Assembly: GCA_963845755.1 (NCBI GenBank) | Contig: CAWJTV010000036.1 | Location: forward strand, 256,001 to 320,000 | Direction of reading: 5' to 3' | Source of the DNA: an uncultured Planctomycetota bacterium | GTDB lineage: Bacteria > Planctomycetota > Planctomycetia > Isosphaerales > Isosphaeraceae | DNA: 64,000 bases | Shown here: piece after piece, positions 11,889-39,656 of the stretch | Position numbering within the stretch: the first letter of the stretch is position 1 | Layout: the number at the start of each line of letters is the position of its first letter | Notes under the pieces: model-generated | What the model was told of the DNA's origin: nothing | Database searches by the model: none | Seen by the model: only the letters and a program-made list of their open reading frames with translations | Translations under genes and position numbers: made by a program

Positions 11889-11950
11889 GAATCTTGAATC
11901 TCGAATGTTCCATTCGATCCCTTCGCGGCTTCCCAGAGGAGACCCGGCCC

Positions 11951-13833: not shown

Positions 13834-14670
13834 ATGATCATTGGACTGGCGTCACCCTGTGTTGCCTCATCACTCGATGCGGGTCTGGACAAGATCAAGA
13901 CGTTCCTGTCCGAAGCGTCCTCCCAGGGCGCGGCGATCGTGTGTTTCCCGGAAGCCTATCTCCCCGGCTTGCGGGGAGTGGGTATTGACGTGTTACCCTT
14001 CGGTCAATCGGAGACACGCGCGGGTACTCGAGGTTGTGGCGCAGTCGGCGCGAGCGTATTCGGTCGCCGCGATCCTCGGGACGGAACGGCTCACGGGTGC
14101 GGGTCGGCAGATTGCCGCCTATGTCATCGACGCCCAGGGCCGGATTCAGGGATACCAAACCAAGAACCAACTGGACCCATCCGAAGATCCGTTCTATGTG
14201 CCGGGAAACACCCGGCAACTCTTTGAAATCGACGGGTTGAAGTTCGGCGTGGCGATCTGTCATGAGGGCTGGCGCTATCCCGAGACGGTGCGCTGGGCGG
14301 CGGCGCGGGGCGCCAGATCGTCTTTCATCCGCAGCACACGGGGAGCGATCAGGAAGGCGTCTGTCCCACGCAGTGGGGCGCGGCCGGCGGACCCTACTAC
14401 GAGAAGGCCATGATGTGTCGCGGCCTGGAAAACACGATCTACTTCGCCAGCGTCAATTATGCGTTGCGCTTCCAGGAATCGGCGACAAGTCTTATCGACC
14501 CGTCGGGCCAGTGTCAGGCGTACTTACCCTATGGGCAGGAAGGCGTCCTGGTGCAGGCCATCAACGTCGAGGAAGCAACCGGTTTGCTCGCCAAGCGGTA
14601 CGCACCCGAGCGTTATCAAACCTCCGAGGAAACGGCCCAGAAGCCCATGGCGGCGATGCAGAGGGAATGA
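13834..14670 (+). CDS. Carbon-nitrogen hydrolase (nitrilase superfamily), frameshifted twice
   Basis: VCFPE, QTK and AICHEGWRYPE (E-K-C triad) spread over three frames; ENTIYFASVN. Confidence 0.85.
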
Positions 14671-16244: not shown

Positions 16245-16745
16245 ATGTTGATCATGGTGTTATCGAATCGAATCGGCTCGCGTACGTCCGGGACCGGCCT
16301 GACCATCCTCCTGGTCGTGGCCCTCTGGGCGGGTTTCAGCCTGGGCGGGGGCGCTGTCCTCGCACTGGGTGATGACGACAAGTCTTCATCCGAGGTGCTC
16401 AAATCCTTGAAAGGCACCTGGGTCTCGGAGTCGGATGAGATTGATTCCAAATGGACCTTCGAAGGAGAGACGCTCAAGGCGAGCGTCAACGGGATCGACT
16501 ACACCTGCAAGGTCAAGGTCGACGCGAAGGCCAAGCCCCACGCGACCGTGGACTTCCTCATCAACGAGGGCCCCGAGGACGCCAAGGGGAAGACCTCGCA
16601 GTGCATCTACAAGCTCGACAAAGAGAAGCTCACGCTCTGTGTCTCCCTGCCCGGCAAGGACCGGCCCAAGGAATTCGAGCAGGCCGAAGGTGAAGCGTTC
16701 CTCTTCAAGCTGAAGAAAGAAAAGTCCGGCGAGAAGAAGGATTGA
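16245..16745 (+). CDS. TIGR03067-type planctomycete domain protein
   Basis: LKGTW...IYKLDKEKLTLCVSLPGKDRPKEF; signal peptide. Confidence 0.8.
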   Translation: MLIMVLSNRIGSRTSGTGLTILLVVALWAGFSLGGGAVLALGDDDKSSSEVLKSLKGTWVSESDEIDSKWTFEGETLKASVNGIDYTCKVKVDAKAKPHATVDFLINEGPEDAKGKTSQCIYKLDKEKLTLCVSLPGKDRPKEFEQAEGEAFLFKLKKEKSGEKKD

Positions 16746-16775
16746 ACGGCCAAGCCTGGACCATTGGGGTTCTGC

Positions 16776-16819
16776 GGGAGTGCGAGGCGGGTTCGATGAA
16801 CGGTTCGCCTCGCCCTCCC
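16776..16819. repeat. REP-like hairpin (GGGAG(T/G)GCGA..CTCGC(C/A)CTCCC family)
   Basis: Inverted arms; related copy at 19809-19873. Confidence 0.55.
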
Positions 16820-17322
16820 CGAGCGTTCCTTTCCCGTATTGTTGCGCCTTGCGGGCTACTGTAAGTTGACCTTTCCTGCGATTGCGCCGGCTGTCCTCTC
16901 ATCGCTCGACGTCACTCGACTCTCGTTGCGCAACCGACAATTCTCACGCTCTCGGCCAGACACTTCGAGTCCATCGCGTCCCGGCTGAGCCTGTGGCCCT
17001 GGAACCCGTCGGTCCGGACCGCCGAACCTCCGGCGATTCCGATCGCACACAGCCAATCCGTTCCTCGTGCAACGCTCCGGCGACTTGCGACACGCAGGGT
17101 AAGGGTTCGGTTTGTCCCTGTAAAGGGTGCACGAGATGCTCCCGTAGAAGCCCACCGGGTTCTCCGTCGAAGCCGTCGGGCGTCGCCTCGATGAATTGAG
17201 GCTCGAATGGATCAGACGGAAAACTCGAACCGAGACAGTTTTTGAGACACGGACTCCCAGCGAGGGCGTACTGGTAGCGGATCGACGACTCGCGATGCGC
17301 AAGCCTAGGAGGAGGGCGGCGA

Positions 17323-18050
17323 ATGAAGCTCCCCGGAACGATCACACGCATCATTCGCGACCTGGAGAGCACCGAGCAATTGCGACGCGATGCCGCCGTG
17401 CGAGAACTCTGGGAACGGTTCTTCGCCGACTTGACGGCCTATGCTCGAAAACGCTTGAAGGCGATGAATGCATCGCGAGGTCCGGCGGACGAGGAGGATG
17501 CCGCCTCGCGAGCCTTCATGAAGGTCTGCCGCGGAATCGAGCCGCGGTCAGCTCAAACTGGCCAACCGAGTGGACCTGACGAAGGTCCTGCGGTCGGCCA
17601 CCGCGCGAGAGGTGTTCACGCTGCTCAGCCGGTCAAAGGGATCGGGTGGGCGGCCCATCGACGACATCGCCCTGGGCCAGGTCGTCGACCCGGCCCTTCC
17701 GCCCGACCTCCTCCTCCTGGCCTTCGACGCCTGCCAGCGTCTGCTCGACCTGCTCGAGACCGACGATGTCCGACACGTCGCCATCTGGAAGCTGGCCGGT
17801 CACACCAACGAGGCGATCGCGGTCAAGCTCGACTGCTCGGCAGCCACGGTCGAGCGCACCTTGTCCCACATCCGAGAGACCTGGAGGCGGTCATGGGGCG
17901 ACGCCGTGCCCCGCGGGCCGGCGAAGCCCGGACCTCGACGCGGCTCGAGCGCGCGCGGCGAATCCCATCGCGTCCCCGCTTCCGGGCGTCGATGACATGG
18001 ACGCCGATGCTGCGGCCAGGCTCCTTCGCGACCTCGCCGGGCTGACGTGA
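17323..18050 (+). CDS. Planctomycete-type ECF sigma factor, frameshifted
   Basis: LWERFF..L..YARKRL..DEEDAA, then VAIWKLAGHTNEAIAVKLDCS..TVERTL (region 4) in the next frame. Confidence 0.8.
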
Positions 18051-18179: not shown

Positions 18180-19773
18180 ATGGGCGTCCAGAAAGCGAGG
18201 CGGATCATGAGGTTGATGTCGCGGGCAGGCTGGCTTGGGGTTGTCGTGGGGCTCGCTGGACTCGTCCCGCGGGCCGGTGCCGCGGAGGGACCCGAGCCGA
18301 TCATCTACGCGATCCGATTCCCGGCGGCCGGCCAGCATATCGCCGAGGTCGAGGCCACGGTCCCGACTCAAGGGCGCCCGGAGATCGCCCTCATGATGGC
18401 GGTCTGGTCGCCGGGATTCTATCGCCTCGAGGACTACGCCCAGAAGATCCAGGGCCTCTCGGCACGGGCCACGAACGGGGCGGCGCTGGGGGTCGAACAT
18501 CCCCAGAAGAACCGCTGGACCATCACGAACACGGGTGGCGGTCCGAAGGTGGTCGTGACGTATCGGCTCACTTGCGATCGCCGGTCCGTCACCACGAACT
18601 GGGTCGGCGAGGACCTCGTCGTCTTGAACGGGGCGGCAACTTGCGTCACGCTGGTCGAGCCGGTCCGCCGTCCTCATGAAGTCCGGCTCGAGTTGCCGGC
18701 TCGTTGCAAGCGTTCGGCGACGGCGATGGATCCGGCCCCCGACGGCCTGCCGAACCACTATCGCGCCGAGGACTATGACACGCTGGTCGATTCGCCGATC
18801 GTCGCCGGAGACCTGTCGATCCACGAGTTCTCGGTCGATGGCAGTCAGCACATCCTCGCGGATGCCGGCGAGGTCGGCCAATGGGACGGCGAGCTCGCGG
18901 CGCGCAATCTGGAGAAGATGGTCGGCGAGGCGCGTCGCTTCTGGGGTTTCTTGCCGTTCCGGCGATACGTCTTCCTCAACGTGTTCCGCCCCGGCGGCGG
19001 CGGGCTGGAGCACAAGAATTCCACGCTGTTGACCGCGAGTCCCCGAGGCGGGAGGGAGCCGGGCTCCGTGCGCTGGCTCTCCTTCATCAGCCACGAGTAT
19101 TTTCATGCGTTCAACGTCAAGCGACTGCGGCCGATCGAGCTGGGACCGTTCGACTACGAGCACCCGCCGTTCAACCAAGAGCCTCTGGATCGCCGAGGGC
19201 CTCACCACCTATTTCGGCGACCTGATCATCAGCCGCGCCGGGCTCGCCAGGCCGAACGACCTCCTGGGCATGCTGTCCTCGCACATCGGGCAACTCCAGA
19301 ACTCGAAAGGACGGCTCGTCCAGACGCTCGAGCAGGCGTCCCTGGACGTCTGGGCCTCCGGGACTTCCGGAGTGGGACGGGACCCCGCCACCAAGCTCAG
19401 CTACTACGTCAAGGGGCCCGTCGTCGGCTTCCTGCTCGACGCCCGGATCCGTCGCGCGACCGGCGGCAAGAAGAGCCTGGATGATGTGATGAGGCACGCC
19501 TACAATCGCTATTCGGGCGACCGTGGTTTCACTCCGGAGCAGTTCCGCGCCGTAGCCGAGGAAGTTGCTGGTGTCGACCTCAAGGAGTGGTATCACAAGG
19601 CGATCGCCTCGACCGAGGAGCTGGATTACCAGGAGGCTCTCGACTGGTTCGGCCTGCGGTTCGCCCCCTCGGACGATCCGTCCAAGGGCTGGAAGCTCGA
19701 GATCCTCGCGGAGGCCACGGAGACGCAGAAAGCACATCTTCGGGCCTGGGCCGAGGCCGCTGGCGGATCTTAG
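18180..19773 (+). CDS. M61 family (glycyl) aminopeptidase, frameshifted ~19170
   Basis: WSPGFY, LVDSPI, GGLEH, SHEYFHAFNVKRLRP, LWIAEGLTTY, SYYVKG. Confidence 0.9.
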
Positions 19774-21879: not shown

Positions 21880-21938
21880 GCCGAAATCGATTTCGGCGAT
21901 TCGCAAGCGGGAACCGCCGTCACGAAGCCGATTTCGGG
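21880..21938. promoter_or_regulatory. Candidate upstream activating sequences for a sigma-54 activator
   Basis: Perfect 18-bp palindrome GCCGAAATCGATTTCGGC (21880-21897) plus degenerate copy CGAAGCCGATTTCG (~21923-21936), 145-200 bp upstream of the -24 box. Confidence 0.5.
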
Positions 21939-22080
21939 TTCGGTCGCCGAGAGCGCCAGGAACGCCCTCGAGTCCTGGAGGGAAATCGGGAGAGCACGTC
22001 CCCATCCGAGCCGCGTTTCCAGGGCTCGAATGAAGGCTCGCCCCGCGGAAATCCTCTTGTTTCAGGGACCCGTATTGCAT

Positions 22081-22096
22081 TGGCACGAGGATTGCA
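22081..22096 (+). promoter_or_regulatory. Sigma-54 (-24/-12) promoter
   Basis: TGGCAC-GAGGA-TTGCA, exact consensus and spacing, 60 bp before ATG 22156 with GGAG SD. Confidence 0.85.
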
Positions 22097-22155
22097 ATTC
22101 CTACACATCAGTTCGCTGTTACCTAGGTCTCAACATGTTTTTGGAGTGTTCAATC

Positions 22156-23482
22156 ATGCACGACATCGACAGGACCCAACTCCAGTCCGGGGTACGGCTC
22201 GGCGAGCAAGAGGCCGGTTACCAGGAGTTTGAATCCGAGCTCTACGAGTCCGAGGGGGAAGGTGAAGCGGAATCCGAGATGTTCTACGAGGGCGAGGCCT
22301 ACGAGTCCGAGGGCGAGCAGTTCTACGAGGCCGAGGGCGAGCAGTTCTACGAGGCCGAGGGCGAGCAGTTCTACGAGGCCGAGGGCGAGGCCTACGAGGC
22401 CGAGGGCGAGGCCTACGAGGCCGAGGCCGAGCAGTTCTACGAGTCCGAGGCCTGGGAAATGGAGATGGCCGCCGAACTGCTGGCGGTCCGAGACGAGGCG
22501 GAACTCGAGCAGTTTCTCGGCGGCCTGGTGAGCGGGCTCTCGGGCCTTGCTAAGAAGGCCGCTCCGTTCCTCGGTTCTGCTCTGAAGACGGTTGCCAAGA
22601 AGGCTCTGCCTGTTGTCGGCGGGGCTTTGGGAGGGCTCGCCGGAGGCCCGATCGGTGCCCAACTCGGCAGCCAGCTCGCGAGCACTGCGGGCAATATGTT
22701 CGGGCTCGAGCTCGAAGGTCTCAGCTACGAAGACCAGGAGTTCGAAGCCGCGAAGGGGTTCGTTCGTTTCGCGAACGATGCGGCGAATATCCTGCAAGAG
22801 ACCGCCCATCACCACTCCACCCCGAAGAAAGCGGCGCATGCCGCTATGAGCGCGTCTGCCAAGAAGAATGCGCCGGACTTCACGGCTCGCCCTCGTCGCA
22901 CAAGGGCGGAGGAGCACCACGCCATAACGGAGCTCACGCGTCGCATCACGCGGGTCCGAAGCCGCCGCACCATGCGGGTCCGAAGCCGTCGCACCACCCG
23001 GGTGCACACCACCCCGGTTCGCCTCACCCGCACCACCCCGGTTCGCCTCACCCGCACCACCCGGGTGCGCGCACCACCCCGGTTCGCCTCACCCGCACCA
23101 CCCGGGTGCGCACCACCCCGGTTCGCCTCACCCGCACCACCCGGGTGCGCACCACCCCGGTTCGCCTCACCCGCACCACCCGGGTCACCGGCCGCGGCAT
23201 CCCCACGTTGGGGCGCCGGGCACAGGCGTTGCGACGGGGCCAGGTCCCGGATGGCGCGGGCCACACTTCGGGCCGTTCCCTGGCCTACCGGGGATCGACG
23301 TTCAGGGTCCAGGTGGATTGACCATAGACGGGATCTTCGGCTATCCGCCTGGCACCTCGGGTCCGGGTCCAGGCGCGGAGGGCACCGGCCAGGGTGGCCC
23401 GGCCGTGGGACGGGGTTGCGTGGGGAACGCGACGGGTCGGTGGTATCGCCGTGGTGACAAGATTGTCCTGGTCGGGGTCTAG
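22156..23482 (+). CDS. Uncharacterised acidic-repeat / His-Pro-repeat protein, two frameshifts (~22873, ~23070)
   Basis: (EGEQFYEA)n N-terminus; core EMAAELL..ELEQFLG..GLELEGLSYEDQEFEAA; stitched tail (HHPGSPHP/HHPGA)n, Gly-Pro region, GRWYRRGDKIVLVGV-TAG ending 3 nt before the next ATG. Confidence 0.75.
22282..22450 (+). repeat. Coding tandem repeat, 21-24 bp units (TTCTACGAGGCCGAGGGCGAGCAG)
   Basis: Direct inspection; encodes E/Y/F-rich repeat. Confidence 0.9.
22945..23185 (+). repeat. Coding tandem repeat encoding HHPGAHHPGSPHP units
   Basis: caccaccccggttcgcctcacccg occurs 5 times, with caccacccgggtgc(a/g) spacers. Confidence 0.9.
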
Positions 23483-23485
23483 CCA

Positions 23486-24820
23486 ATGGTCGATCACCCT
23501 ATCGCCAACCGGCTGCTGGCCGACGAGGCCCGCGCCCTCCTGACTCGCCTGGGACGCGTCAAGTCGTTCGCGCTGAACGAGACGATGGTCCCGGCGGCTG
23601 CGCTGTCGCTGCTGGCGCAAACGGCCATCGAGCATCAGCTCGCGGGAGGTCGGCGTGCCCTGCGGCGACGGGTGAACGACTACCTGTGCTGGCTCTGCGG
23701 GCCGGGCGGCCGTGCAGCCTCCCCCGCCGAGGCGCACCGACGGTTCAGCCTGCTCCGCATGCTGTTCAATGCCGGGCTCGCTCAATTCGACCTGTTCTCA
23801 CAGGTCGTCACACAACGCAGCGAGAATGAGATCGGGGTGTGGCTTTCCGGGCTCGACTACGTCGCCGAGGATGCGCTGGAGCTGCCCGGTTACTACGAGG
23901 CCCCACCCCTGGCTTGCTACCTCGATCGCGGCCCCGGGGCCGCCATCCGGCGGGCACGTACCCGGCTGCCCGGAGGAGGTGAGAACCCGGTCGCGATCAT
24001 CCGCGTCCCGCGCGAGCGGATGATCGGCAGTGCCATCGCCTCGTCGCTGGTCCACGAGGTCGGCCACCAGGCCGCGGCCCTGCTCGACCTGGTCCCGTCG
24101 CTCCGCTCCGCGCTTCGCCGCGTGGGCCGCCGCGCCGACAACAAGGACGTCTGGAACGTCTTCGATCGTTGGATCTCCGAGATCGTGGCGGATTTCTGGG
24201 CGATGGCCCGGCTTGGGATCGGCGCGACCCACGGGCTGATGGCTGTGGTCAGCCTCCCGCGCGCCTTCATGTTCCGCGTCAAGGCCAACGACCCGCACCC
24301 GTCCCCTTGGATCCGTGTCAAGCTGAGCTGTGCCCTGGGCCGGGCCCTCTTCCCCGACCCCCAGTGGGACCGACTGGCTGAACTTTGGGATTCGTACTAT
24401 CCGCTCGAAGGTCTGACGGGGACGGTCCGGGATCTCCATCGGCGGCTCGAAGGGGCATTACCCGAGTTTGTCGACCTGTTGATCCGGCACCGTCCGGCGT
24501 CGTTACACGGCCAGGCGCTGGGGGAGGTTATGCAGTCGGAGAAACTTCAGCCGCATCGGCTCATGGCTCTGTACCGGACCTGGAAGGCCGCACCCGCGAT
24601 GCTCCGCCGGGCCCCGCCGACACTGGTGTTCGCCGTCATCGGCCAGGCCCGGGCCGATGGTGAGATCAGCCCGGAACTGGAGTCCCGGGTCCTCTCCAGC
24701 CTGCTCACGTACTGGGCCCTGCGCAGCAACCTCGATACTTCCGAAATTTGTGCGACGCGGGGACCTCGCATTGCGCTCGTCCCCGCTCGTGAAACACTTG
24801 CAATCCAACACAGAAGGTGA
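23486..24820 (+). CDS. Putative gluzincin-type zinc metallopeptidase (HEXXH)
   Basis: LVHEVGHQ, downstream EIVADFWA, and DPHPSPWIR (M48-like HP..R); no signal peptide. Confidence 0.65.
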   Translation: MVDHPIANRLLADEARALLTRLGRVKSFALNETMVPAAALSLLAQTAIEHQLAGGRRALRRRVNDYLCWLCGPGGRAASPAEAHRRFSLLRMLFNAGLAQFDLFSQVVTQRSENEIGVWLSGLDYVAEDALELPGYYEAPPLACYLDRGPGAAIRRARTRLPGGGENPVAIIRVPRERMIGSAIASSLVHEVGHQAAALLDLVPSLRSALRRVGRRADNKDVWNVFDRWISEIVADFWAMARLGIGATHGLMAVVSLPRAFMFRVKANDPHPSPWIRVKLSCALGRALFPDPQWDRLAELWDSYYPLEGLTGTVRDLHRRLEGALPEFVDLLIRHRPASLHGQALGEVMQSEKLQPHRLMALYRTWKAAPAMLRRAPPTLVFAVIGQARADGEISPELESRVLSSLLTYWALRSNLDTSEICATRGPRIALVPARETLAIQHRR

Positions 24821-24824
24821 ACCC

Positions 24825-26585
24825 ATGGCACGACGTAGAAGAGATCGCCAGAACTTCGACCCCCTGAACCCGCAGCCGCCTTTCTCGTCGCCGGTGAGCC
24901 CGGAGTCGATCATCCCGCCGATCACGAACCCCGAGCCGATCATCCCGCCGGCAGAGGAGCTCGGGACGGGGCCGGAGGGTGACTTGACGGAGGACCTCGC
25001 GAGGTTTGTGCCCGTACGCCCCGAGGTCAACGTCCGGCTCGCCCAACCGGCGGGAATCAACCCGACGTTGGACCAGGGCCTCTGGATCGCGATCCGCAAC
25101 ACCGCCCAGAGGACCTCCTTCGAGCATTACCGCCTGTTCATCGACCGGGTCCTGTGCCAGCCGGACAGTCCCCGCATCGGTTCCGACGACGGCCCGGATG
25201 ATGAAATCGCGGGTCTGGTCCGCACGGCGCAGTGGCCCCATAGCAAAGGGGGCCTCGGCTTGCACGCCTACGGCGTCAACGCGTACAACATCCTCAGGCT
25301 TGCGACCGAGACGTTCCTGCTGATGCGGTGCGGCGTCGCGATCCGGGGCCACTACCGCCCGGATTGGGATGAAGCCCGGCTCTATCAGCGTTTCAGCGCC
25401 GAGGACGCCTGTGGCATGCTCCAGAGCTATCTGAGGGAGCCGGGGGCGATCCTGCCCTACCTCGAACAGGTCTTCAACGCCCTGGATGCCACAGACCGGC
25501 AGACGTTGACACCGGGAAGGGACGACGTCAACTCGCCCTTCTGCATCATGCCTCTCATCCAGAGGATCACAGCACCCTGCCTCGTCGAGCTGATCTGGTC
25601 GTACTGGCACGAGCAAGGCATGCTGGTGCAAACGATGAATGCGATCAGCATGCGATTCCAGAACAAGCGGTCCAGCCCCGGTGCCAAGGACCCGCTGGCA
25701 ACCATGGAGATCGACCCGCTCCGGCCGGTCAATAACCTGCTCTGGGGATTCGTCCAGGACGAGTTCAACCGGCTGAGCGTCCCGCGTCGATCCAGCGAGT
25801 ACGACCATCAGTACGGGCTCAAGCTCGTGGGTCGCGCCGTGCCCGGCGCACCCGCCGCGGACAGCCGCTCGAAATTCCTCGAAGCGTTCCACGACCTGAT
25901 GATGCGCACCAAGCTCTTCTACGATGAGGACGCGGATCGCACCATTGAGTCGAATGCGTTTCCGCTGCTCAACGGCCTCCGCGAGGTCCACCTCCTGCTG
26001 GCCGAGGGCGCGCACAACCAGTTCGGCGACCTGCCCTGGACCGCCCGCGTCGAGATGCTGATCCAGCAGTATTTGCTGGCACGGCCCGAGATGCGGGAAT
26101 TCCTCGGAGGACGCGTGATGGTGCCTTACCCCGAGCCCTGGATGGGCCGCGTGGACACCATGAAGGCCCTCCAGGGGTGGACCGACGTCCCCGTCCTGCA
26201 CTTCCGCAACCTCGGGGTCTACGCGGAACAGATCCTGCTCTCGATCCGCTACGGTGACTGGGTCGACGTCATCGACCACGACCGGGCGCGGAACTGGGCA
26301 CGGTTCTGGAGACCGGAGATCGAGGGATATGTCCACACCTACCGCGTCGTCACGGGCGTGGATTTGACGACGGCCACGACGGTCGACTCGACTCAGCCCG
26401 CGATCCTGGTGGGCCGCCGCCTCCAAGGCTACGGCCGTACGTCGCGAGCGGTGCGGGTCGTGGACGCCACACCCCGGCCCCAGTCGCTGCCCGGGGCGCC
26501 GGCGCCGACCCAGCGCACGATCGCGTCGCTGACGAAGCCTTCGCAGAACGGCATCCCCGATAGCCGCGTGAAGTCGAAGTCCTGA
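24825..26585 (+). CDS. Uncharacterised ~586-aa cytoplasmic protein
   Basis: Long clean ORF, strong GC3 bias, starts 4 nt after the previous stop; Trp/Tyr-rich globular C-terminal half; no recognised motif. Confidence 0.85.
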   Translation: MARRRRDRQNFDPLNPQPPFSSPVSPESIIPPITNPEPIIPPAEELGTGPEGDLTEDLARFVPVRPEVNVRLAQPAGINPTLDQGLWIAIRNTAQRTSFEHYRLFIDRVLCQPDSPRIGSDDGPDDEIAGLVRTAQWPHSKGGLGLHAYGVNAYNILRLATETFLLMRCGVAIRGHYRPDWDEARLYQRFSAEDACGMLQSYLREPGAILPYLEQVFNALDATDRQTLTPGRDDVNSPFCIMPLIQRITAPCLVELIWSYWHEQGMLVQTMNAISMRFQNKRSSPGAKDPLATMEIDPLRPVNNLLWGFVQDEFNRLSVPRRSSEYDHQYGLKLVGRAVPGAPAADSRSKFLEAFHDLMMRTKLFYDEDADRTIESNAFPLLNGLREVHLLLAEGAHNQFGDLPWTARVEMLIQQYLLARPEMREFLGGRVMVPYPEPWMGRVDTMKALQGWTDVPVLHFRNLGVYAEQILLSIRYGDWVDVIDHDRARNWARFWRPEIEGYVHTYRVVTGVDLTTATTVDSTQPAILVGRRLQGYGRTSRAVRVVDATPRPQSLPGAPAPTQRTIASLTKPSQNGIPDSRVKSKS

Positions 26586-26718
26586 GCCGGTCGGCGCGGT
26601 CGCCGGCCCGGGCCTGGCGTTCGGTCGCGACGACCGAACGCCAGGATGGGCCGAGCATACCGCGTCGTGGAGCGCGCCGGTCCGGGCCGATTGGATCTGT
26701 AACCTGGTGGTCACACGG

Positions 26719-27852
26719 ATGCTCGATTTCAGCTCGTCGCTCTACCTGGGCTTGCGGCACGCAAGCCGATCGCTGGCCGCGTGGGATCGATTGACGGAGG
26801 GAAAGCCGTCGGCCCTCGATGAGCCCCCAGGCGCCGCGGCCGTGGCCGCAGCAATGTCCGTCCTCACCGGCTGCGAGCGGGCGGTCCTCCTCCCCTCGAC
26901 GTTGCATCTATTCTGGGATCTGTTCGGCATGCGGGCTGGCGACGCCATCGCCATTTACGTCGACGCCGGCACCTACCCGATCGCCCGTTGGGGCGTCGAG
27001 CGGGCGGCGGCGCGGGGGACAACCGTGCGATACTTCGCCCATCACGACGCGCACGCTTTGGGGCGTCTCCTCTTGCACGAGACACGGAGGGGCGTCCGGC
27101 CTCTCGTCGTCGCCGACGGATTCTGCCCACGGTGCGGGCGCGCGGCGCCGGTGCCGGAATACCTCGAGGCGACCCGCACGTTCGGCGGCTCGCTGCTGAT
27201 CGATGATACACAGGCCCTCGGCATCTTCGGCCACTCGCCCGGCCCGGATTCGCCCTACGGCCACGGTGGCGGTGGGACGTCGCGGCGGTGGGACGTCGCG
27301 GGCCCCGATGTCTTGATCGGTGCCTCGATGGCCAAGGCCTTCGGCACGCCGGTCGCCGTCCTGTGCGGGGCCGCGGCCGAAGTCCGCCGCTTCATGACGC
27401 TCGGCGAAACCCGCGTGCATTGCAGCCCGCCCTCCGTGGCGAACATCCGCGCGGCGGCCCACGCCCTGGAGCTCAATCGTACCTGCGGCGACGCCTTACG
27501 GCTCCGCCTGGCCGGCCTCGTCGGCCGGTTCCGCGCCCGCCTTGCCGAGCGCGGACTCTCCGCGTCGGGTGGCCTCTTCCCCGTGCAGCGCGTCGCGGTC
27601 CCGCCGGGGCACGACGCATCCCTGCTGCACCGGCACTTGCTCCGGCTCGGCGTCCGGGCTGTCCTCGTGCGCGACGCCCCCCGCCGCAGCCCGGGACTTT
27701 GCTTCCTGATCAATGCGCGTCAACATCCTTGTGTGATCGACCGAGCGGCCGGTGCCCTCGCGTCTGCGTTGAGAAGATCCCCACTTGTTTCGAGGCCCAG
27801 TGACCATCCCGCCCCGCGTCCTTCGCCCGTGGGCGGCGGTTTCCAGTCGTAA
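26719..27852 (+). CDS. Divergent PLP-dependent alpha-oxoamine synthase-like enzyme (BioF/KBL fold)
   Basis: DFSSSLYLGL, FAHHD, DDTQALG, SMAKAFG (PLP Lys). Confidence 0.8.
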   Translation: MLDFSSSLYLGLRHASRSLAAWDRLTEGKPSALDEPPGAAAVAAAMSVLTGCERAVLLPSTLHLFWDLFGMRAGDAIAIYVDAGTYPIARWGVERAAARGTTVRYFAHHDAHALGRLLLHETRRGVRPLVVADGFCPRCGRAAPVPEYLEATRTFGGSLLIDDTQALGIFGHSPGPDSPYGHGGGGTSRRWDVAGPDVLIGASMAKAFGTPVAVLCGAAAEVRRFMTLGETRVHCSPPSVANIRAAAHALELNRTCGDALRLRLAGLVGRFRARLAERGLSASGGLFPVQRVAVPPGHDASLLHRHLLRLGVRAVLVRDAPRRSPGLCFLINARQHPCVIDRAAGALASALRRSPLVSRPSDHPAPRPSPVGGGFQS

Positions 27853-27882
27853 GACATGGCGAAGACCAAGAGGAGAATCATC

Positions 27883-29406
27883 ATGGGATGCGGCTGCAAA
27901 CACGGGCACGGTCCGAATGCTTTCGACCTGAGCCATCTCGAGGTTGGAGAGGGTGAGGTCGCCTTGCCCATCTCCGCCATGTTCGAGCTGGGAGAACTGG
28001 AACAAGAGCGGCGCGGGTTCGGGAGGGCCCCACGCCGGGCCTCCGTGGCGCGGCCGCGGATGAGGCGACGGGCACCATCGGCGCCGATGGCCCGCCCGAA
28101 GGGTCAAGCGTCGCTGTTGCGGCGCAAAACCCTGGGACATGCGGCCCAGGGGGCGGGAAAGCACCTGGCGACTAAGAGGCGCACACAACAACAAGCCAGG
28201 CCCGGCGGCTTTCCCGGCGCTCAGAGGAGGTTCCGTAGAGGCCGATCGCCCTTGGGCCCTGCCGCCCCCATCGGTGGACTGGCCATGGCCCCGAACCCGG
28301 TGATCTTGAACCGCCGTTATTCCGACCAGTTGGGATGGCGGGCCTATTACAACCAGATCCTCACACTGCTCGGACCCCTCGCCACGGGCGGCGAATCGGC
28401 ATTCGTCCAGGCCGTTGCGCAGTGGCAAGCGACCAAGGGCCTGCCCGCGAATGGGGTGCTCGATCCGACGAGCTGGGCTCAGATGCAGGGCGATCTGGCG
28501 GCCGGTCCGGCTGCCCCGCCACTCGCTCCGCTTCCCGCCGCGCTGGAGCCGCCCGACGCGGCGCTACCGCTTGGAGCCGAGCCGCCCCCATTGGCAGAGC
28601 CTGCTCCACTCGGCGGCGAGATGGAATGGGAGTCCGAATCGGGCTCTCGATACACCCGGCCGGCATCGCGGCGCTGGGCTCACTGCCCTCCTACGGCGGA
28701 AATGCCTCCAACCGAGCGCACCGTGCTGGCAGTGACGAGTCGACTCCAGACCGGTAAGCCTTTTGCCTGCACAGTCTCCGCTCACGACGGCATCTCGATG
28801 GGCCTGATCCGGTGGAATCTCCGGAATGGCACGCTCCAGCGACTGCTGGCGCGCTTCGAAAACCGGAGCGGTCGGCTCATCCGGTTCTTCCGTGCCGACT
28901 ACGACCGACTCATGGGACTGATCGCCCTGCGTCACTCGGCACCCCAGCGAGGTCGGGCCGTCGCGGTGGCATTCGCGGATCGGCTGGCCGATCGCTGGCG
29001 CGGTCCCCTGCTCTCCCTCTTCTCCGACACGACCTTCTACTCAATGCTGATGCAGGACGTTCGCGGCCGCCTCGCCGCGGCCAAGGGTGCTGCACGGCGA
29101 CTGGGCGTGTGGACCGTACGTGGCCTGGCCCTGTTGTTCGACATCGCCGCCTGCGAGGGCCTCGGCCGATCGAAGATCGCGCGACTCGCCGCCCGCCTCC
29201 GGCGTCTCGAGGCGACCAGGGGGCCACTCTCCGAGCAGGAGAAGCTCGTCGCCATCGTCGATGAATCCGTCCGTCGCCTGGCCCGTCATCGCGATGAGCG
29301 ACGCGCCCTTCGGATGGTGATCGCGACCGGCTCGGGACCGGCTCGGGGCCGGTGGTGGGACCTCGGCCGCGACTATGCCAACCTCGACGCCCCGTGGGAA
29401 TCGTGA
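27883..29406 (+). CDS. Peptidoglycan-binding domain protein with acidic motifs and a possible lysozyme-like C-terminal domain
   Basis: AGGAG SD before MGCGCKHGHG; AVAQWQATKGLPANGVLDPTSW (PG_binding_1-like); DGISMGLIRWN..GTLQRLL and RGLALLFDIA. Confidence 0.65.
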   Translation: MGCGCKHGHGPNAFDLSHLEVGEGEVALPISAMFELGELEQERRGFGRAPRRASVARPRMRRRAPSAPMARPKGQASLLRRKTLGHAAQGAGKHLATKRRTQQQARPGGFPGAQRRFRRGRSPLGPAAPIGGLAMAPNPVILNRRYSDQLGWRAYYNQILTLLGPLATGGESAFVQAVAQWQATKGLPANGVLDPTSWAQMQGDLAAGPAAPPLAPLPAALEPPDAALPLGAEPPPLAEPAPLGGEMEWESESGSRYTRPASRRWAHCPPTAEMPPTERTVLAVTSRLQTGKPFACTVSAHDGISMGLIRWNLRNGTLQRLLARFENRSGRLIRFFRADYDRLMGLIALRHSAPQRGRAVAVAFADRLADRWRGPLLSLFSDTTFYSMLMQDVRGRLAAAKGAARRLGVWTVRGLALLFDIAACEGLGRSKIARLAARLRRLEATRGPLSEQEKLVAIVDESVRRLARHRDERRALRMVIATGSGPARGRWWDLGRDYANLDAPWES

Positions 29407-29653
29407 GGTTCGCCGGCGGTGGCTCCGTCCCGATCATTGACGGTTATCGTCGCGCGGAAACGGGCGGGGACCCCCTGGGGGCATCGCCTTTCGGGCTCGA
29501 CCCCAGCTATCTCCGGTCTGGCTCCGAGAGCCGCGGGGTGGCTGGGGTCGAGCCGGCATTGCCGCGCTGCCCCCAGAATCGCCGCAGGCGTGAAGAGGTT
29601 CACCGCGGTGGTCGTCTGCGGAACCGGCGGGATCTCGATCACGAGAGACGCCC

Positions 29654-31054
29654 TCAGGCGTCGTGCCGGCCGTTGCCATTGCCATCGCCGTCCTGTTGAC
29701 GGCGGGAGGCCCGGCGGAGCTGGAGGGTTCGGTCGGTCACGCCGAGCCGCCGCGCCGCACGTTGCAAGTTCCCGTCCTCGGCCGCGACGGCGTTCCGCAC
29801 GGCCACGTCCTCGGCGACGCGGCCGATGTCCTTCAGGCCGACACCCCAGGCCAGGGCCTTGCGGATCGTCCTCTCGAACATCTCATCGCACCAATCGTCC
29901 GGCCGGTCGGACGGATCCGGTCGTTCGTCCTCGGGGACGTCGCCGACGGTGATCGGGGCCGGTCCCACGTGGCGGCAGGCGATCCGCGAGATTAATTGCC
30001 GGAGGTCACGCACGTTACCCGGATACGTCCGTCGCAGCAGGTACTGACGAACCGGCTCGTCCAGTTCGATGGCTCCCAGGTCGGGCCGGAACTGGGTGAG
30101 GAAGTGGCGTGTTAGCGGCAAGATGTCTTCCACTCGCTCGCGCAATGGAGGAAGCTTGCATGTGCATCCGGCGATTCGGTAGTAGAAATCGCGTCGGAAG
30201 CGGCCCTGGGCCTCTTCCTGGAGCAGGTCCCGGTTGGTGGCGCAGACCAGGCGGAAGTCGGTCTTTTCCCAGGAATTGCTCCCCACGCGCTTGTAAGTCC
30301 GCTCCTGCACGACGCGGAGCAAGTCGGCCTGGAGCATCAGGGGGAGCTCGCCGACCTCGTCGAGGAACAGCGTCCCGCCATGAGCCAGGGCGAAGGCGCC
30401 GTCGCGCGCGGCGACGGCGTTGGTGAACGCCCCGCGCTCGTGGCCGAAGAATTCGCTACCGGCCAGCTCGGGGACGATCGTCGTGCAGTCCAGGATGACG
30501 AGATCGCCCTTGTTGGACCGCCGGTCGAGCGTGTGGAGCAGGCGCGCCACCAACTCCTTCCCCGTCCCGCTCTCGCCGGTGATCATCACGGCGGCATCGG
30601 TGAATACGGCGACTTCGATGACCTGGCGCAGGGCCATCGTCCAGGCAGGGCTGCATCCGACCAGGTTGCCAGCAACCAGGGAGGAGCGTACCAGGTCGTC
30701 CACCGAGGCCCATCGCCGCAGCCGGCGCAGATCGCAGCGCCCGCATCGGCCCCGCCGTTCCAGGCGATGACGTCGGAGGCTCCCACCTTGAGCAGCGACC
30801 ACGACGAGCCGTCTGCCAGTGGCTCGGCCGAGATCGCGACGGCCAGCACTCTCCCCAGGCCATTTCGGCTGAGCTGGCGGACCTGATCGTAGACCGAAGG
30901 GCCGAGCCGATCGAAGACGACCAGCCCAGGGCCCGACGGTTCCTCGCTCTCCAGCGGTGAGGCCTCGATCCGCTCGCGCAAGCCGAGCGATGAGGTCCGA
31001 CCTCAGTGTGCCCTTTCCGTGCGTGTGAAAGTTGACCCAGATCTTGGTCGGCAT
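29654..31054 (-). CDS. Sigma-54-dependent transcriptional activator (bEBP); compensating frameshifts in the N-terminal part
   Basis: GESGTGKE, FFGHERGAFTNA, LFLDEVGE, ATNRDL, FRRDFYYR, PGNVRDL, C-terminal HTH. Confidence 0.92.
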   Translation of the reverse strand: MPTKIWVNFHTHGKGTLRSDLIARLARADRGLTAGERGTVGPWAGRLRSARPFGLRSGPPAQPKWPGESAGRRDLGRATGRRLVVVAAQGGSLRRHRLERRGRCGRCDLRRLRRWASVDDLVRSSLVAGNLVGCSPAWTMALRQVIEVAVFTDAAVMITGESGTGKELVARLLHTLDRRSNKGDLVILDCTTIVPELAGSEFFGHERGAFTNAVAARDGAFALAHGGTLFLDEVGELPLMLQADLLRVVQERTYKRVGSNSWEKTDFRLVCATNRDLLQEEAQGRFRRDFYYRIAGCTCKLPPLRERVEDILPLTRHFLTQFRPDLGAIELDEPVRQYLLRRTYPGNVRDLRQLISRIACRHVGPAPITVGDVPEDERPDPSDRPDDWCDEMFERTIRKALAWGVGLKDIGRVAEDVAVRNAVAAEDGNLQRAARRLGVTDRTLQLRRASRRQQDGDGNGNGRHDA

Positions 31055-31600
31055 GAACGTCAGTCGAACCCGCCGGCCGGAAGTTTAACCTCGAAGGCGA
31101 CGTCCCGCCCAGCACGATGTTCGAATCCCTTGCATTTTTCGGGACCTCGGGCAAGCGGAGAGAGAACCCGCAGTATAGTCGCAGGACTAATCAAGCTCAC
31201 GACGACCCGTGCGCAATCACTCGCGGGTTTTTTGCGGAATCATGCGGGCAACCGTGGGGCCCGTGATATTTGAAGGTGCCTGTGTCTTGAAGATCACTCA
31301 TAGATTATTTATTTGCAGATTTATTTCGATGGCCTGCCGGTGGGAAGATGAGCGATTCCCCTGGTGAGGCGAGGCCCGCTCGCCGACGCGCGGCGGGCGC
31401 GTATCCACCCAGGGCCTCGTGGCTTTCCAGGGCGGCCGGGGAGTCATCGCCACCCCTGCACGCGATCGGCCGTCTCTGTCGCCGGCCCGGGGACCAACGA
31501 TCGAGGTCATCTACCGGCTGGATTCACCGGCGCGACTTCGCATGAGTGCAAGAAAGACATGCTGTGTCGAGTAGCTCAGGCTCGCTTGTACGCTGGCGGC

Positions 31601-32647
31601 CTAACGGTTCAGGTACCGGTTCGCGAGCCACAGTTGCTGAACGGCCCACGCCAATTCGCGGCCGTCGATCGAGATCTCGCAACGACGTTCCAGCGGATCC
31701 TCCTCATGGCTCTGGGCCTTGGTGTCCCCGACCGCCTGGATCAGGTTCGTATCCATGTTGGGGACGCCCCTGCGCTTCAGCCAGTCCACCACCGCGGCCT
31801 TCCGCTTCTCGGAGAGTTTCTGATTGTATCGGATTCGGTCCGCCGCATTGCCCCGGTATGCCACGCTCGCCCTGGCCTCGCCGCGCACGGGCAGCAATCC
31901 GCTGTCAAGGGCGACGCGCACCTCGTAGGTGGATACCAGGCTTTCATGGATGAACCTGTCGAGGTTGTCTCCGTCGTCTCTGCGGTGGCCATTCCGGTCC
32001 TGGTCGATCTTGGCGGAATCGACGTCGAAGAGGACCCGGTACAGCAGGCCCTGCACCTTACTCACCGGCTGGACCAGCTCGATGATCAACGGACCGAGCA
32101 TGGCGGTACGCGGGCCCGTCGACCCGGGCCTGATGTCGTGCGGTACATCGCTGGCCTGGCCGTTCGTGACGGTCACGCATCGAGCACCTCGGCGATCGAG
32201 TCGATCGAGCCAGGCGACCGCCACGATGTGCATGACCCGGATGCTGGACGGAGCCGGGACGGTGCCCGGGGGCCAACCCAGGAGGTTGTCTTGCCAGGTG
32301 TAGATCTCCATCTCCAGGGACAGGGAGTAGCCCCAGTCCGCGCAGACCTTCCCTTTCCTCCTGATTTCAATGTTGCCGTCCTCGAGGCACGAGAATGGCA
32401 GCTCCACCTTGAAAGGAAACGTCACCTGATCAAATACATCCAACCGCGGTACCTGAAGATCGATGTCCAACGACAGGCTCACCGAGCCGCTGAGAGATAT
32501 CGGGACCAGGAGGGTCACCGGCTTGAAGAAATCGAGCGGGTAGGAGCCGCGCGGCATCAGCGTCCCTTTCTCGGGGTTCGCCGAGGCTGTCAGCCGAAGG
32601 TGGGACCCACCTCCCCAAGGGTTGACATCTACTTCTTGGACCGCCAT
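31601..32647 (-). CDS. Protein with OmpA-like C-terminal domain, no signal peptide
   Basis: VLFDVDSAKI, YNQKLSEKRKAAVVDWL, AVGDTKA, RRCEISI; GGAGG SD before ATG 32647. Confidence 0.7.
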   Translation of the reverse strand: MAVQEVDVNPWGGGSHLRLTASANPEKGTLMPRGSYPLDFFKPVTLLVPISLSGSVSLSLDIDLQVPRLDVFDQVTFPFKVELPFSCLEDGNIEIRRKGKVCADWGYSLSLEMEIYTWQDNLLGWPPGTVPAPSSIRVMHIVAVAWLDRLDRRGARCVTVTNGQASDVPHDIRPGSTGPRTAMLGPLIIELVQPVSKVQGLLYRVLFDVDSAKIDQDRNGHRRDDGDNLDRFIHESLVSTYEVRVALDSGLLPVRGEARASVAYRGNAADRIRYNQKLSEKRKAAVVDWLKRRGVPNMDTNLIQAVGDTKAQSHEEDPLERRCEISIDGRELAWAVQQLWLANRYLNR

Positions 32648-33035
32648 GTTCGGTACCTCCTTCGACCGTGGAAGCACACCCTCTGACAGCGCCCACCCCC
32701 CGTGCAGGGGCCTTCGCGGGCATCTGGCCTGCCCGGCTCACACTGCGATGAGCTGTGAAGTTAATCAGCAACCTTGTCTCGGAACCGATAGTACTCGGAG
32801 ACTTTTCACCGAGGGAGTATGAATGCCGATGTCAGATCCCCGTCCCCGTGATCGGGATGGGGCGACGTCTCTTCGTGTGTGACCTCGGTGGCGCTTCGAA
32901 GCGGCCACCCCACCCGCGGTCGCCACAGGTCGTCGAGATTCTTGATTGTGTCCGGCAGGAGGACCGTGGGGTCATCCGGCTGAAGGGCGCCACCGTCGCA
33001 TTAATGCAAGCTGATGTGGTACAGAAAGCTGCCGA

Positions 33036-39046: not shown

Positions 39047-39656
39047 GCGGAACGTTCCGCGATCACCACCCTGGTCCTCGGTTCTTGCGTTTTCCCAGCG
39101 CGACGCTCGAACGTTCTCGCCGCTCATCACCCCTCGACCGGGAGCGGGCTGGCATACCGGCGATGGATCGCCCGGGCGCCTCGAAACGATCCGCAACGCC
39201 CCAACGGGGATTCGACCGATCCTCGGGGGGACGTCACCGCGCGACGATCCCGACAGGAGGTGGCATTTTCTGGCACCTTTTTGGCAGGGCGCCATCCTCG
39301 ATCTCTTGGATGGGAAACGGGTTGCGGCGAACCCGTGAATCGGTAGGAGCAGTCGGGTAGTCGTGGTTTTGAGTGATCTCGCGAGCCCCATATTCTTTAG
39401 GATGCCGCAACTTTTTAAAAATGTTAATGCACCTATCTCGGTTTTTGGGGTCCGATCCTCCCGAACTCTTGATGACATCAGCAGATAGGAAATTTCAAAA
39501 TTTTTTTGAGCCTGTGGATTAGCGGCTCGGATTTCCGGACTCGGGACTATCCTTTCGGGAAGGACTGGCGATAACGTGTTTTCGCGGACACGCATCTCCT
39601 TGGTTTGCCAGCAATCTTCCCCCTCGGGTGGGGCTCCGACTCTCAGGAATCGACCG

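Follow-up and report, generated by a model that had tools for sequence, protein, structure and literature searches.

A horizontally spread, sigma-54-gated operon of unannotated protein families in a planctomycete genome and its possible role in breaching the cell envelope

The stretch of DNA analysed here, referred to as the window, comprises 64,000 nucleotides (nt) from the genome of an uncultured Planctomycetota bacterium of the family Isosphaeraceae (C36:256001-320000; assembly of 14.27 Mb in 49 contigs, 87.9% complete). It contains five co-oriented genes, g1 to g5, with a sigma-54 promoter in front of them and a gene for a bacterial enhancer-binding protein (bEBP) converging on their end. 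This gene set is one copy of a widespread, horizontally spread operon that is gated by sigma-54 and a bEBP. The invariant core of the operon consists of g1, present as one to three paralogues, g2 and g3, with g4 and an Amidohydro_2 enzyme as frequent additions. There is no described system under which the cassette can be filed: the core has no counterpart among named pathways and defence systems or among the families of Pfam, NCBIfam, PADLOC, PHROGs and the PDB, PADLOC has no family for any of g1 to g5 and matches only the bEBP (with RtcR-type models), and no description of the cassette was found in the literature searched.

The promoter, TGGCACGAGGATTGC (22081-22095, +), combines a -24 TGGCAC with a -12 TTGC and is the sole perfect TGGCAC-N5-TTGC match across the 64 kb; with one mismatch tolerated the pattern occurs 4 times, with 2.65 occurrences expected. 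Its end lies 60 nt before the ATG of g1 at 22156. Gene g1 (22156-23482, +) encodes a protein that starts with MHDIDRT and continues through acidic/aromatic repeats and His-rich repeats to the tail GRWYRRGDKIVLVGV. It is followed by g2 (23486-24820, +), for a mostly helical protein of 444 amino acids with a zincin-like HEVGH motif, and g3 (24825-26585, +), for an all-alpha protein of 586 amino acids with a disordered Pro/Arg-rich N-terminus. Gene g4 (26707-27852, +; start codon GTG at 26707 or ATG at 26719) encodes a divergent pyridoxal 5'-phosphate (PLP) enzyme of the alpha-oxoamine-synthase fold, and g5 (27856-29406, +) a protein with a short N-terminal Cys/His motif, an Arg-rich disordered stretch, a sub-threshold PG_binding_1 match and a C-terminal domain. 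The gaps between successive genes are 3, 4, about 121-133 and 3 (or 30) nt. The convergent bEBP gene (29654-31054, -) encodes an AAA+ sigma-54 activator, and its receiver-like, probably pseudo-receiver, N-domain (30586-30981, -) lies in another frame in this assembly.

A scan for g3 over one genome per species yielded 24 related loci, on which the locus counts below are based. They come from Planctomycetota, Myxococcota, Alphaproteobacteria (Palleronia, Paracoccaceae), Chloroflexota, Actinomycetota (Solirubrobacterales, Arthrobacter, Pseudarthrobacter), Rubricoccaceae and Acidobacteriota, at least seven phyla in all, and g1, g2 and g3 are found together wherever the contig permits. Searching the loci with the window proteins by tblastn recovered g1 in 22/24, g2 in 23/24, g4 in 17/24 and the bEBP in 18/24, with most misses falling at contig ends. 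An orthologue of g5 is present in one locus only, the nearest relative L001, which is from a Planctomycetota metagenome-assembled genome (MAG) and encodes a g5 protein with 63% identity. Clustering of open reading frames (ORFs) and a Pfam scan added an Amidohydro_2 enzyme in 12 loci and a complete rpoN gene in 11, and g1 often occurs as two or three tandem paralogues. The whole inventory can be compact, as in L009, where one strand carries the order bEBP-rpoN-g1a-g1b-g2-g3-g4-amidohydrolase. In a Solirubrobacterales MAG (L008:1-11400), two inverted cassette copies meet at their promoter ends, with the same sigma-54 element on both strands at 6099 and 6294. A BTAD protein adjoins the cassette in three loci from two phyla (L005:4649-5644, L016:14929-15990 and L017:15002-15973).

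The core families are large. At 90% identity, the relatives of g2 fall into at least 5517 clusters. The top 120 of the listing, all annotated as hypothetical, mostly share 61-87% identity with the window protein, and named examples among them are from Chloroflexota and Pseudomonadota. Relatives of g3 form at least 4963 clusters at 90% identity and 1332 clusters at 50% identity, 676 of them with E<=1e-30. At the same time the g2 profile matches in only 4/301 Planctomycetota genomes, including the window's own (3/190 of high quality), and the window g2 is 60-66% identical to Chloroflexota copies vs 48-50% to those of three other Planctomycetota. The flanks of the cassette differ among the loci except for L001. 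This patchy distribution, together with the incongruent g2 identities and differing flanks, indicates horizontal spread, without recognisable mobile-element genes.

Much of this agrees with a preliminary description of the window, made from its letters alone, which had reported five tightly spaced co-oriented genes, a perfect sigma-54 promoter and a converging bEBP gene. It had taken them for a self-contained, uncharacterised system that matches no named pathway or defence system, and had mentioned similar gene sets in other phyla; the 24 loci now bear this out, and its suggested neighbourhood check on g2 and g3 shows that their homologues do co-occur across other genomes. Its remark that the proteins lack an evident Sec/Tat signal also holds, since a hydropathy proxy finds no N-terminal hydrophobic segment. 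The observation is therefore real in its main points and partly confirmed, with corrections. Of the two peptidoglycan-binding proteins that it listed, only g5 has a matching domain, below the cut-off, and the g1 tail is without a Pfam match. The OmpA-like gene that it had joined to the system (31601-32677, -; 358 amino acids with a weak OmpA-like C-terminus) lies outside the cassette: it scores 17.1 bits vs a Pfam cut-off of 27.2, tblastn finds no counterpart of it beside the cassette in the 24 loci, and about 550 nt of lower-GC DNA separate it from the bEBP gene. Finally, g1 is not one intact gene here, because three frames are needed to reach its conserved tail.

Reading starts in frame 0, passes to frame 2 at about 22880 and to frame 1 at about 23066, and reaches the stop at 23482. 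The acidic half of g1, including a 24-nt tandem array of 6.6 copies that encodes EQFYEAEG repeats (22299-22450, +), continues the frame set by the start codon; the repeats rich in His, encoded by a 39-nt array of 4.0 copies with 98% matches (23029-23185, +; repeat HHPGSPHPHHPGA), appear only in frame 2; and the final 138 codons, with the tail and its stop codon 3 nt before g2, appear only in frame 1. Because the tail is the hallmark C-terminus of the family, g1 originally spanned 22156-23482. The bEBP gene likewise has two frame changes in its N-terminal third, where it leaves and re-enters the frame. Decay of the cassette in this genome, leaving the copy silent or non-functional, would account for two frame changes in each of two genes, and the g1 of L001 also seems to leave its frame after the HAPG motif, so that the called ORF is without the C-terminal tail. 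We nevertheless consider decay unlikely. One g1 shift is a 2-nt insertion within the 98%-identical array and one bEBP junction is explained by the loss of 1 nt from a C run, both typical sites of consensus errors, whereas g2, g3, g4 and g5 are intact and highly conserved. An unrelated upstream M61 peptidase gene is split in the same manner (18180-19484 and 19105-19773, +) and is intact in the closest relative L001, and CN_hydrolase, extracytoplasmic-function (ECF) sigma and GSDH genes of the window (13841-14413, 17570-17995 and 39576-41075) give truncated domain matches. The assembly thus seems rich in small indels, and the frame changes are probably indels of the consensus or assembly. Four public soil sequencing runs hold short, low-depth fragments of the window, none of which spans a frame-change site.

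Control by sigma-54 appears to be a conserved property of the cassette. In the promoter test, a -24/-12 element had to retain its GG and GC, match at least 8/10 consensus bases and lie within 300 nt before the first g1. Among 23 cases, comprising the window and the 22 loci with a recognisable g1 start, 22 have such an element, which in 21 begins 60-93 nt upstream of the g1 start; of random 300-nt windows drawn from the same loci, 6.75% pass the test. The element of Arthrobacter and Pseudarthrobacter is TGGCACGAATTGTGC at -86. The window bEBP matches Sigma54_activat (PF00158, E 4e-55) and AAA_lid_14, has the Walker A sequence GESGTGK, carries a one-residue variant of the GAFTGA loop (GHERGAFTNA) and ends in a probable Fis-type helix-turn-helix (HTH_8; 20.6 bits vs a cut-off of 22). 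By a strict pattern, the GAFTGA loop is found in 15/19 full-length cassette bEBPs, as GAFTNA in two. The N-domain aligns with those of 18 cassette bEBPs in what by eye is a receiver-like pattern without an evident phospho-acceptor Asp, and neither 30586-30981 nor its intact homologues match Response_reg in Pfam. In its AAA+ and HTH part, the bEBP is best matched in NCBIfam and PADLOC by models of RtcR (NF038308, E 8e-80; PDLC01995, E 1.9e-84), the CARF-domain bEBP that forms a similarly self-contained unit with its RtcBA RNA-repair cargo. It differs from RtcR in scoring 269 bits vs the curated 650, in having a receiver-like rather than a CARF N-domain and in being encoded without RtcA or RtcB genes. 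Elsewhere in the window, a near-consensus sigma-54 element with one mismatch, TGGCACCTTTTTGGC (39271-39285, +), precedes by about 290 nt the cytochrome c/glucose-sorbosone dehydrogenase gene at 39576-41075.

In 11 loci the cassette also includes rpoN, adjoining the bEBP gene and encoding AID, core-binding and DNA-binding domains. This rpoN is the sole Sigma54_DBD match in all four whole genomes searched, those of Arthrobacter sp. Leaf137, a Solirubrobacteraceae MAG, Palleronia pelagia and a Chloroflexi MAG. In the window's own genome and in a Rubricoccaceae genome, where the cassette is without rpoN, the gene is found elsewhere. Because the cassette copy is the only one in the tested hosts, the cassette seems to supply sigma-54 to hosts that otherwise lack it. 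This bears on the statement, in a 2025 survey, that Actinomycetota are effectively without a functional RpoN (PMC12316311). In Arthrobacter, Pseudarthrobacter and Solirubrobacterales, an rpoN with all three RpoN domains lies inside the cassette, and it is the sole copy in the two Actinomycetota genomes tested. Among 401 Actinomycetota genomes, RpoN exceeded the cut-off in 12 and the g3 profile matched no genome but the centre one, which makes the cassette rare in this phylum. In a tree of 11 cassette and 10 other RpoN sequences, with all 21 rows retained, the cassette copies require 2 changes, group by host phylum and fall among long branches. Two further Actinomycetota loci (L039 and L040, genomes G066 and G281) encode rpoN and a PAS-domain bEBP with different cargo, namely an acyl-CoA dehydrogenase, an aldehyde:ferredoxin oxidoreductase, an AMP-ligase and a 2-hydroxyglutaryl-CoA-dehydratase-like protein. 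This cargo, too, seems to travel with its own sigma-54, and carrying its own sigma-54 is therefore not unique to the cargo of g1, g2 and g3.

Some cultured strains, namely Rhizobium sp. CCGE531/532, Ensifer adhaerens and Paraburkholderia phymatum STM815 (pBPHY01), also carry relatives of g2 on large replicons. The P. phymatum locus has the order g1-g2-g3-(g5-like)-Amidohydro_2 with a convergent bEBP gene, and was mapped to Bphy_6913-Bphy_6908 by the order of gene descriptions and by the flanking genes for an IF2_assoc/AAA protein (6914), an FRG protein (6907) and an EAL protein (6906). Expression values for these genes are given in Table S8 of PMC5979394, which compares rpoN-mutant with wild-type nodules, and in Table S4 of PMC5748707, which compares bacteroids with free-living cells. 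In the rpoN mutant, the log2 change in these tables is -5.05 for g1 (Bphy_6913; p 0.066), -4.53 for g2 (Bphy_6912; p 0.14), -3.86 for g3 (Bphy_6911; p 0.094), -2.21 for the g5-like gene (Bphy_6910; p 0.36), -0.77 for the amidohydrolase gene (Bphy_6909; p 0.27) and +1.0 for the bEBP gene (Bphy_6908; p 0.10) (PMC5979394). The corresponding values in bacteroids are +4.0 (p 0.11), +5.3 (p 0.08), +2.9 (p 0.19), +2.0 (p 0.33), -0.61 (p 0.41) and -0.28 (p 0.62), and nitrogen starvation leaves the orthologues unchanged in the same Table S4 (PMC5748707). None of the values in either comparison reaches significance by itself. The graded, operon-wise fall in the mutant is suggestive, being the pattern that sigma-54 dependence from a promoter before g1 predicts. 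In the literature text searched, the Bphy tags of the cassette are not mentioned. At this locus (L045) the cassette is flanked by an IF2_N/IF2_assoc-AAA_15/AAA_21 ATPase (5747-7831, -) and an FRG-domain protein (16555-17451, +). Both domain types occur in defence islands; such flanks were not seen at the other loci.

The architecture of g1 was defined from 22 related loci and alignment A3. The protein is 220-430 amino acids long and conserved along most of its length. It starts with MHDIDRT (type a) or MSTYEYETGE (type b), followed by a variable acidic/aromatic region of low complexity and a conserved helix, EELELAAELLEV..E.ELEQFLG. In the middle, a Lys/Arg-rich stretch leads into 23-35 uncharged Gly/Ala-rich residues (..AKKALP.VGGALG..PG.G..IGS.LAS.AG..FGL). 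An acidic helix, ELEGLS.EDQEFEVARRFVR.A, then precedes an Ala/Pro-rich part ending in HAPGLL, a variable linker and the family's shared extreme C-terminus, GRWVRRGRKIVLLGV. The window g1 follows this plan, with an amphipathic helix, a Lys-rich stretch with 35 uncharged Gly-rich residues, and an ELEGLSxEDQEFE helix. No family in Pfam or NCBIfam covers g1 and its tail has no Pfam match. Matches of a g1 homologue in PHROGs are weak (E 5e-4 and above), one of them tape-measure-like at E 5e-4, and Gly-zipper_Omp is matched by 3/18 g1 sequences at E<=1, the best at 8e-4 and all below the cut-off.

In g2, the residues H190, E191, H194, Q195 and E232 are invariant, E232 across the 67 sequences of alignment A2. 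An AlphaFold2 (AF2) model with a pLDDT of 88.1 and a pTM of 0.86 is mostly helical and places HEVGH (190-194) on a helix formed by residues 182-199, and an invariant Arg-rich loop (148-168) is modelled as disordered. The protein is thus a candidate zincin-like HExxH...E protein, a motif that is not by itself proof of zinc binding. The gluzincin label given to it in the preliminary description is backed by the HExxH motif and the invariant Glu, and not by any recognised fold or family. VIA-align superposed only an N-terminal three-helix bundle, with a Z of about 10 that is common for helical bundles, and profiles of g2 and g3 reached best E values of 0.85 and 1.4 against all PDB sequences. The nearest named clusters in Atlas are Peptidase_U49 (Lit) and M48 at 0.77, which we regard as a lead only. 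The window's own genome (G000, contig C11) additionally encodes a protein of 924 amino acids in which a HExxH core distantly similar to that of g2 (E 1.2e-14 against the g2 profile) is fused to a CHAT caspase-like domain and which adjoins a second CHAT protein (L043:2836-5610, -). A distant variant of the core in another Planctomycetota genome (G671, L044:4489-8828, +) combines a protein of 309 amino acids, with an extremely acidic N-half, a Lys-rich, histone-H1-like C-half and a beta-like tail, with a g2-like protein of 429 amino acids (hhalign probability 98%) and then a protein of 695 amino acids that is unrelated to g3.

The most conserved unknown of the set is g3, whose alignment has about 60 invariant columns in which Trp, Tyr, His, Arg, Glu, Asn and Gln are common. 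Its AF2 model is all-alpha (pLDDT 74.5, pTM 0.76), and it has no family in Pfam, NCBIfam, PADLOC or PHROGs and no fold match in the PDB or BFVD, with a best Z of 6.0. Many g3 homologues carry beta-sandwich domains in place of the disordered N-terminus, also without signal peptides. The genes g2 and g3 are 4 nt apart in the window and naturally fused in one case, P0250, a protein of 1107 amino acids. A complex prediction for g2 with g1 (the L005 pair, with their own alignments) scored 0.00, which gives no verdict and is evidence neither way.

The product of g4, labelled a divergent PLP enzyme in the preliminary description, passes only a general model, Aminotran_1_2 (28.6 bits, cut-off 19.7), and keeps the PLP lysine in 18/18 sequences. 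It falls far short of the bioF model TIGR00858 (54.3 vs 426.45 bits) and is without a match in PADLOC or PHROGs. It aligns to residues 41-349 of the Escherichia coli 8-amino-7-oxononanoate synthase (AONS; 1BS0) and shares the type I PLP fold and Schiff-base lysine of the alpha-oxoamine synthases (BioF/AONS, KBL, SPT, CqsA). Unlike these enzymes, it has DDTQ in place of DDAH, with His replaced by Gln in 16/18 sequences and by Leu in 2/18; the N-terminal 40 residues of AONS are missing, and the region around the PLP-stacking His does not align. Some otherwise complete loci, such as L002 and L019-L021, have no counterpart of g4.

Between g4 and the amidohydrolase or bEBP gene lies a variable slot that is occupied by proteins with sequence features of cell-envelope-directed enzymes. 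At E 1e-11 to 1e-32, proteins of this slot clearly pass PG_binding_1 in six other loci. PG_binding_1 domains, single or paired (and PG_binding_3), are found in L007, L006, L021 and L013, PG_binding_1/OmpA fused to phospholipase D (PLD) in L005 (735 amino acids) and L013 (670 amino acids), and DUF2272/CHAP proteins in L013 and L019. Inspection by eye adds lytic-transglycosylase (LT)-like motifs in L013, L019 and L002, an NlpC-like Cys...His pair in L002 and a C-terminal HExxH in L007. An acidic/aromatic stretch or a CxCxxC motif opens many of these proteins, with an Arg/Pro-rich disordered region behind it, and by hydropathy none of 14 accessory proteins has a signal-like N-terminus or transmembrane-like segment. 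The window's g5, with its Cys/His N-terminus, Arg-rich region and weak PG-binding match, fits this pattern. One weak, unnamed PHROGs match was found for it.

We tentatively propose that the operon serves to breach the cell envelope, as a leak-proof module gated by sigma-54 that works like a holin-endolysin set. A signal would act on the receiver-like domain of the cassette's own bEBP, which would then open a sigma-54 promoter that is silent without it. The g1 protein would be made in a latent, membrane-active form, with its acidic pro-region masking the Lys-rich amphipathic and Gly-rich segment, and g2 and g3 would jointly process or release it. Released g1 could then compromise the cytoplasmic membrane and thereby allow the signal-less peptidoglycan-binding enzymes to reach and cut the wall or membrane; here this enzyme would be g5, and elsewhere the LT-like, CHAP/DUF2272, NlpC-like or OmpA-PLD proteins. 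The outcome would be a controlled breach, either as self-lysis, for suicidal defence or release of contents, or as export of the holin/endolysin type. Such a device, which we can put forward as a possibility at most, would work like a phage lysis cassette while being assembled from unrelated parts and not borne by a phage. Sigma-54 promoters are strictly silent without their activator, a property that would suit dangerous cargo.

Several features are consistent with this proposal. The g1 sequence, with its acidic N-half, basic segment, uncharged Gly-rich segment and weak Gly-zipper_Omp matches, has the features that a masked membrane-active protein might have. The conserved promoter, the GAFTGA loops, the cassette's own rpoN and the fall of the tabulated P. 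phymatum transcripts in the rpoN mutant all point to sigma-54 dependence, and the 4-nt spacing and P0250 fusion suggest that g2 and g3 are coupled. The CHAT fusion, with the U49/M48 similarity as a lead, suggests kinship of the g2 core with conflict-type proteins. In bacterial gasdermin-protease pairs and the phage-exclusion peptidase Lit (U49), as proposed here for g1 and g2, a latent membrane-damaging protein stands beside a dedicated protease, and both the Atlas clusters and the CHAT-fused core in the same genome bear on this comparison; g1 shows no sequence or fold relation to gasdermins, g2 belongs to no peptidase family and g1 to g5 have no PADLOC hit. The accessory enzymes appear envelope-directed and signal-less in the manner of canonical endolysins, and the N-terminal PG_binding_1 and C-terminal LT-like layout of some of them recalls modular endolysins. 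The cassette as a whole resembles holin-endolysin(-spanin/disruptin) cassettes and 'type 10' secretion, in which signal-less peptidoglycan enzymes are encoded beside a small membrane-active protein under tight transcriptional control. It differs from them in that g1 has neither a transmembrane helix nor similarity to a holin family and in that it is controlled by sigma-54 and a bEBP outside any phage context.

A number of observations weigh against a lysis module. No core protein contains a classical transmembrane helix. In g1 homologues no transmembrane-like segment is present (maximum 19-residue hydropathy of 0.9-1.5, and 1.3-1.5 for g1, by a proxy and not a dedicated predictor), and g1 is thus not a canonical holin. 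The peptidase activity of g2 is unproven: the protein has no family in Pfam, NCBIfam, PADLOC or PHROGs, and Foldseek finds nothing at E<=1e-3, so that no zincin matches its fold. The PG_binding_1 match of g5 (residues 182-210) reaches 19.5 bits vs the Pfam cut-off of 23, and its C-terminal domain has no assignment. The model gives no role in lysis to g3, g4 or the amidohydrolase; g2, g3, the PLP enzyme and the amidohydrolase have no counterpart in holin-endolysin cassettes, and the PLP enzyme and amidohydrolase point rather to small-molecule or peptide chemistry. The genomic setting is equally unhelpful, with no relatives of g2 in 50,697 phage records and none confirmed in IMG/VR viral contigs, no integrase or transposase domain in 100 flanking proteins at E<=1e-6, and defence-type domains in only about 5 of these 100, the flanks being ordinary metabolic genes, so that a defence-island setting is not supported. 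As for expression, the 5- to 33-fold fall of the g1 to g5-like orthologues listed for the rpoN mutant is individually significant for none of them (PMC5979394). The operon tends upward in nodules (log2 +2.0 to +5.3, p 0.08-0.33, in the tabulated data; PMC5748707), which is not obviously a lysis situation. Because of these points, we keep two further explanations, each of which we judge to be unlikely.

The first is a non-lethal response to envelope stress or a remodelling programme with the logic of the phage shock protein (Psp) system, in which g1 would coat or stabilise the membrane, g2 and g3 would mature it and the wall-binding hydrolases would locally remodel peptidoglycan, for instance during differentiation, symbiosis or dormancy. 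Like Psp, with its bEBP PspF, sigma-54 promoter and effector PspA, the cassette combines a dedicated bEBP and a sigma-54 promoter with envelope-directed cargo, and its bEBP matches the pspF model TIGR02974 (E 9e-65, below the cut-off). The amphipathic nature of g1, which is no true transmembrane protein, the housekeeping rather than defence-island flanks, and the tabulated behaviour of the P. phymatum orthologues, flat under nitrogen starvation and upward in bacteroids (PMC5748707), fit such an envelope-stress setting. In contrast to Psp, however, the cassette has no component similar to PspA/B/C or other known stress proteins, its bEBP has a receiver-like N-domain, its cargo includes hydrolases and it can carry rpoN. 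Moreover, a polymorphic slot of destructive enzymes (PLD, CHAP, LT-like, NlpC-like) looks more like a weapon or lysin, and the patchy occurrence (4/301 Planctomycetota and 1/401 Actinomycetota genomes) together with the incongruent phylogeny, in which the window g2 is closer to Chloroflexota copies than to those of other Planctomycetota, fits an accessory, transferable trait.

The second explanation, which we rate as similarly improbable, is maturation of a secreted peptide or protein in the manner of a bacteriocin or a ribosomally synthesised and post-translationally modified peptide (RiPP). Under this reading, g1 would serve as a precursor whose acidic leader masks a cationic core, g2 would act as leader peptidase, and g3, g4 and the amidohydrolase would modify g1 or make a small-molecule partner, with the wall enzymes as bacteriolysins co-released against competitors. 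Many antimicrobial-peptide precursors are laid out with a cationic amphipathic segment behind an acidic propiece, and g1 resembles them; the one to three tandem g1 paralogues with conserved ends and a variable middle also favour this reading. Also in keeping with it are the lysine conserved throughout g4, which forms a distinct conserved subfamily, the enzyme-like character of g3, with its roughly 60 invariant and largely polar or aromatic residues, and the resemblance of the variable enzymes behind a common N-terminal module to polymorphic toxins. On the other side, no locus contains a transporter, an immunity gene or a known RiPP enzyme, g4 and the amidohydrolase are dispensable, being missing from several otherwise complete loci, and g1, at 220-430 amino acids and with conservation along most of its length, is unlike typical precursors.

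A protein shell, coat or compartment, with g3 as the shell protein and acidic-tagged proteins as cargo, is very improbable: the Atlas language-model search ranks capsid clusters of partitiviruses and picobirnaviruses closest to g3 (score 0.92; top hit 173/256 features), and its all-alpha fold with a disordered basic N-terminal arm and the N-terminal beta-sandwich domains of many homologues would suit such a role, but the Atlas recognition value of 870 is low, which makes the capsid score weak by the tool's own guide, and neither Foldseek against the PDB and BFVD nor VIA-align against 48,161 chains gives a capsid match, the best fold match (Z 6.0) being a small helical lipid-binding protein. 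The similarity of g3 to double-stranded RNA virus capsids is a language-model lead that found no support in three fold searches, and the compartment or coat suggested in the preliminary description is not supported. The description had also envisaged acidic-tagged proteins handled by the peptidase and the unknown protein. Such handling would fit the acidic/aromatic N-termini followed by basic stretches that are common to g1 and many accessory enzymes. Overall, that earlier interpretation is partly supported.

If the envelope-breaching proposal were correct, the operon might stand for a 'sigma-54 cartridge' of a class not described before. Transcriptionally autonomous and mobile, it would carry its own bEBP and, where the host is without one, its own sigma-54, and its cargo would be a novel envelope-breaching machine made of g1, g2, g3 and swappable effectors; we regard this broader generalisation as rather doubtful at present. 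With its own bEBP and, where needed, sigma-54, such a cartridge could stay fully silent and then fire in almost any bacterium, and it would account for a part, at least, of the scarce rpoN genes reported from phyla that are described as devoid of sigma-54. Were the cargo indeed meant for gated lysis or killing, it would offer a new route to programmed envelope breach and also a ready-made, leak-proof and portable expression switch. Whatever their function, g1, g2 and g3 are large conserved families without annotation, solved relative or recognisable fold, and constitute a sizeable blind spot. Because the carriers include the cultured strains P. phymatum STM815, Ensifer adhaerens, Rhizobium sp. 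CCGE531/532 and Arthrobacter sp. Leaf137, the question is directly testable.

The genes around the set carry DUF1549/DUF1553 and DUF1573 domains, which are typical of Planctomycetota. Further upstream, three adjacent genes at 8699-13021 (+) form a prokaryotic module for ubiquitin-like conjugation, of a type seen in some defence systems: one fuses ThiF (E1-like) to a YukD ubiquitin-like domain, and the others encode a JAB/MPN peptidase and a protein with an FHA domain. A Uma2 endonuclease gene is located at 3237-3851.

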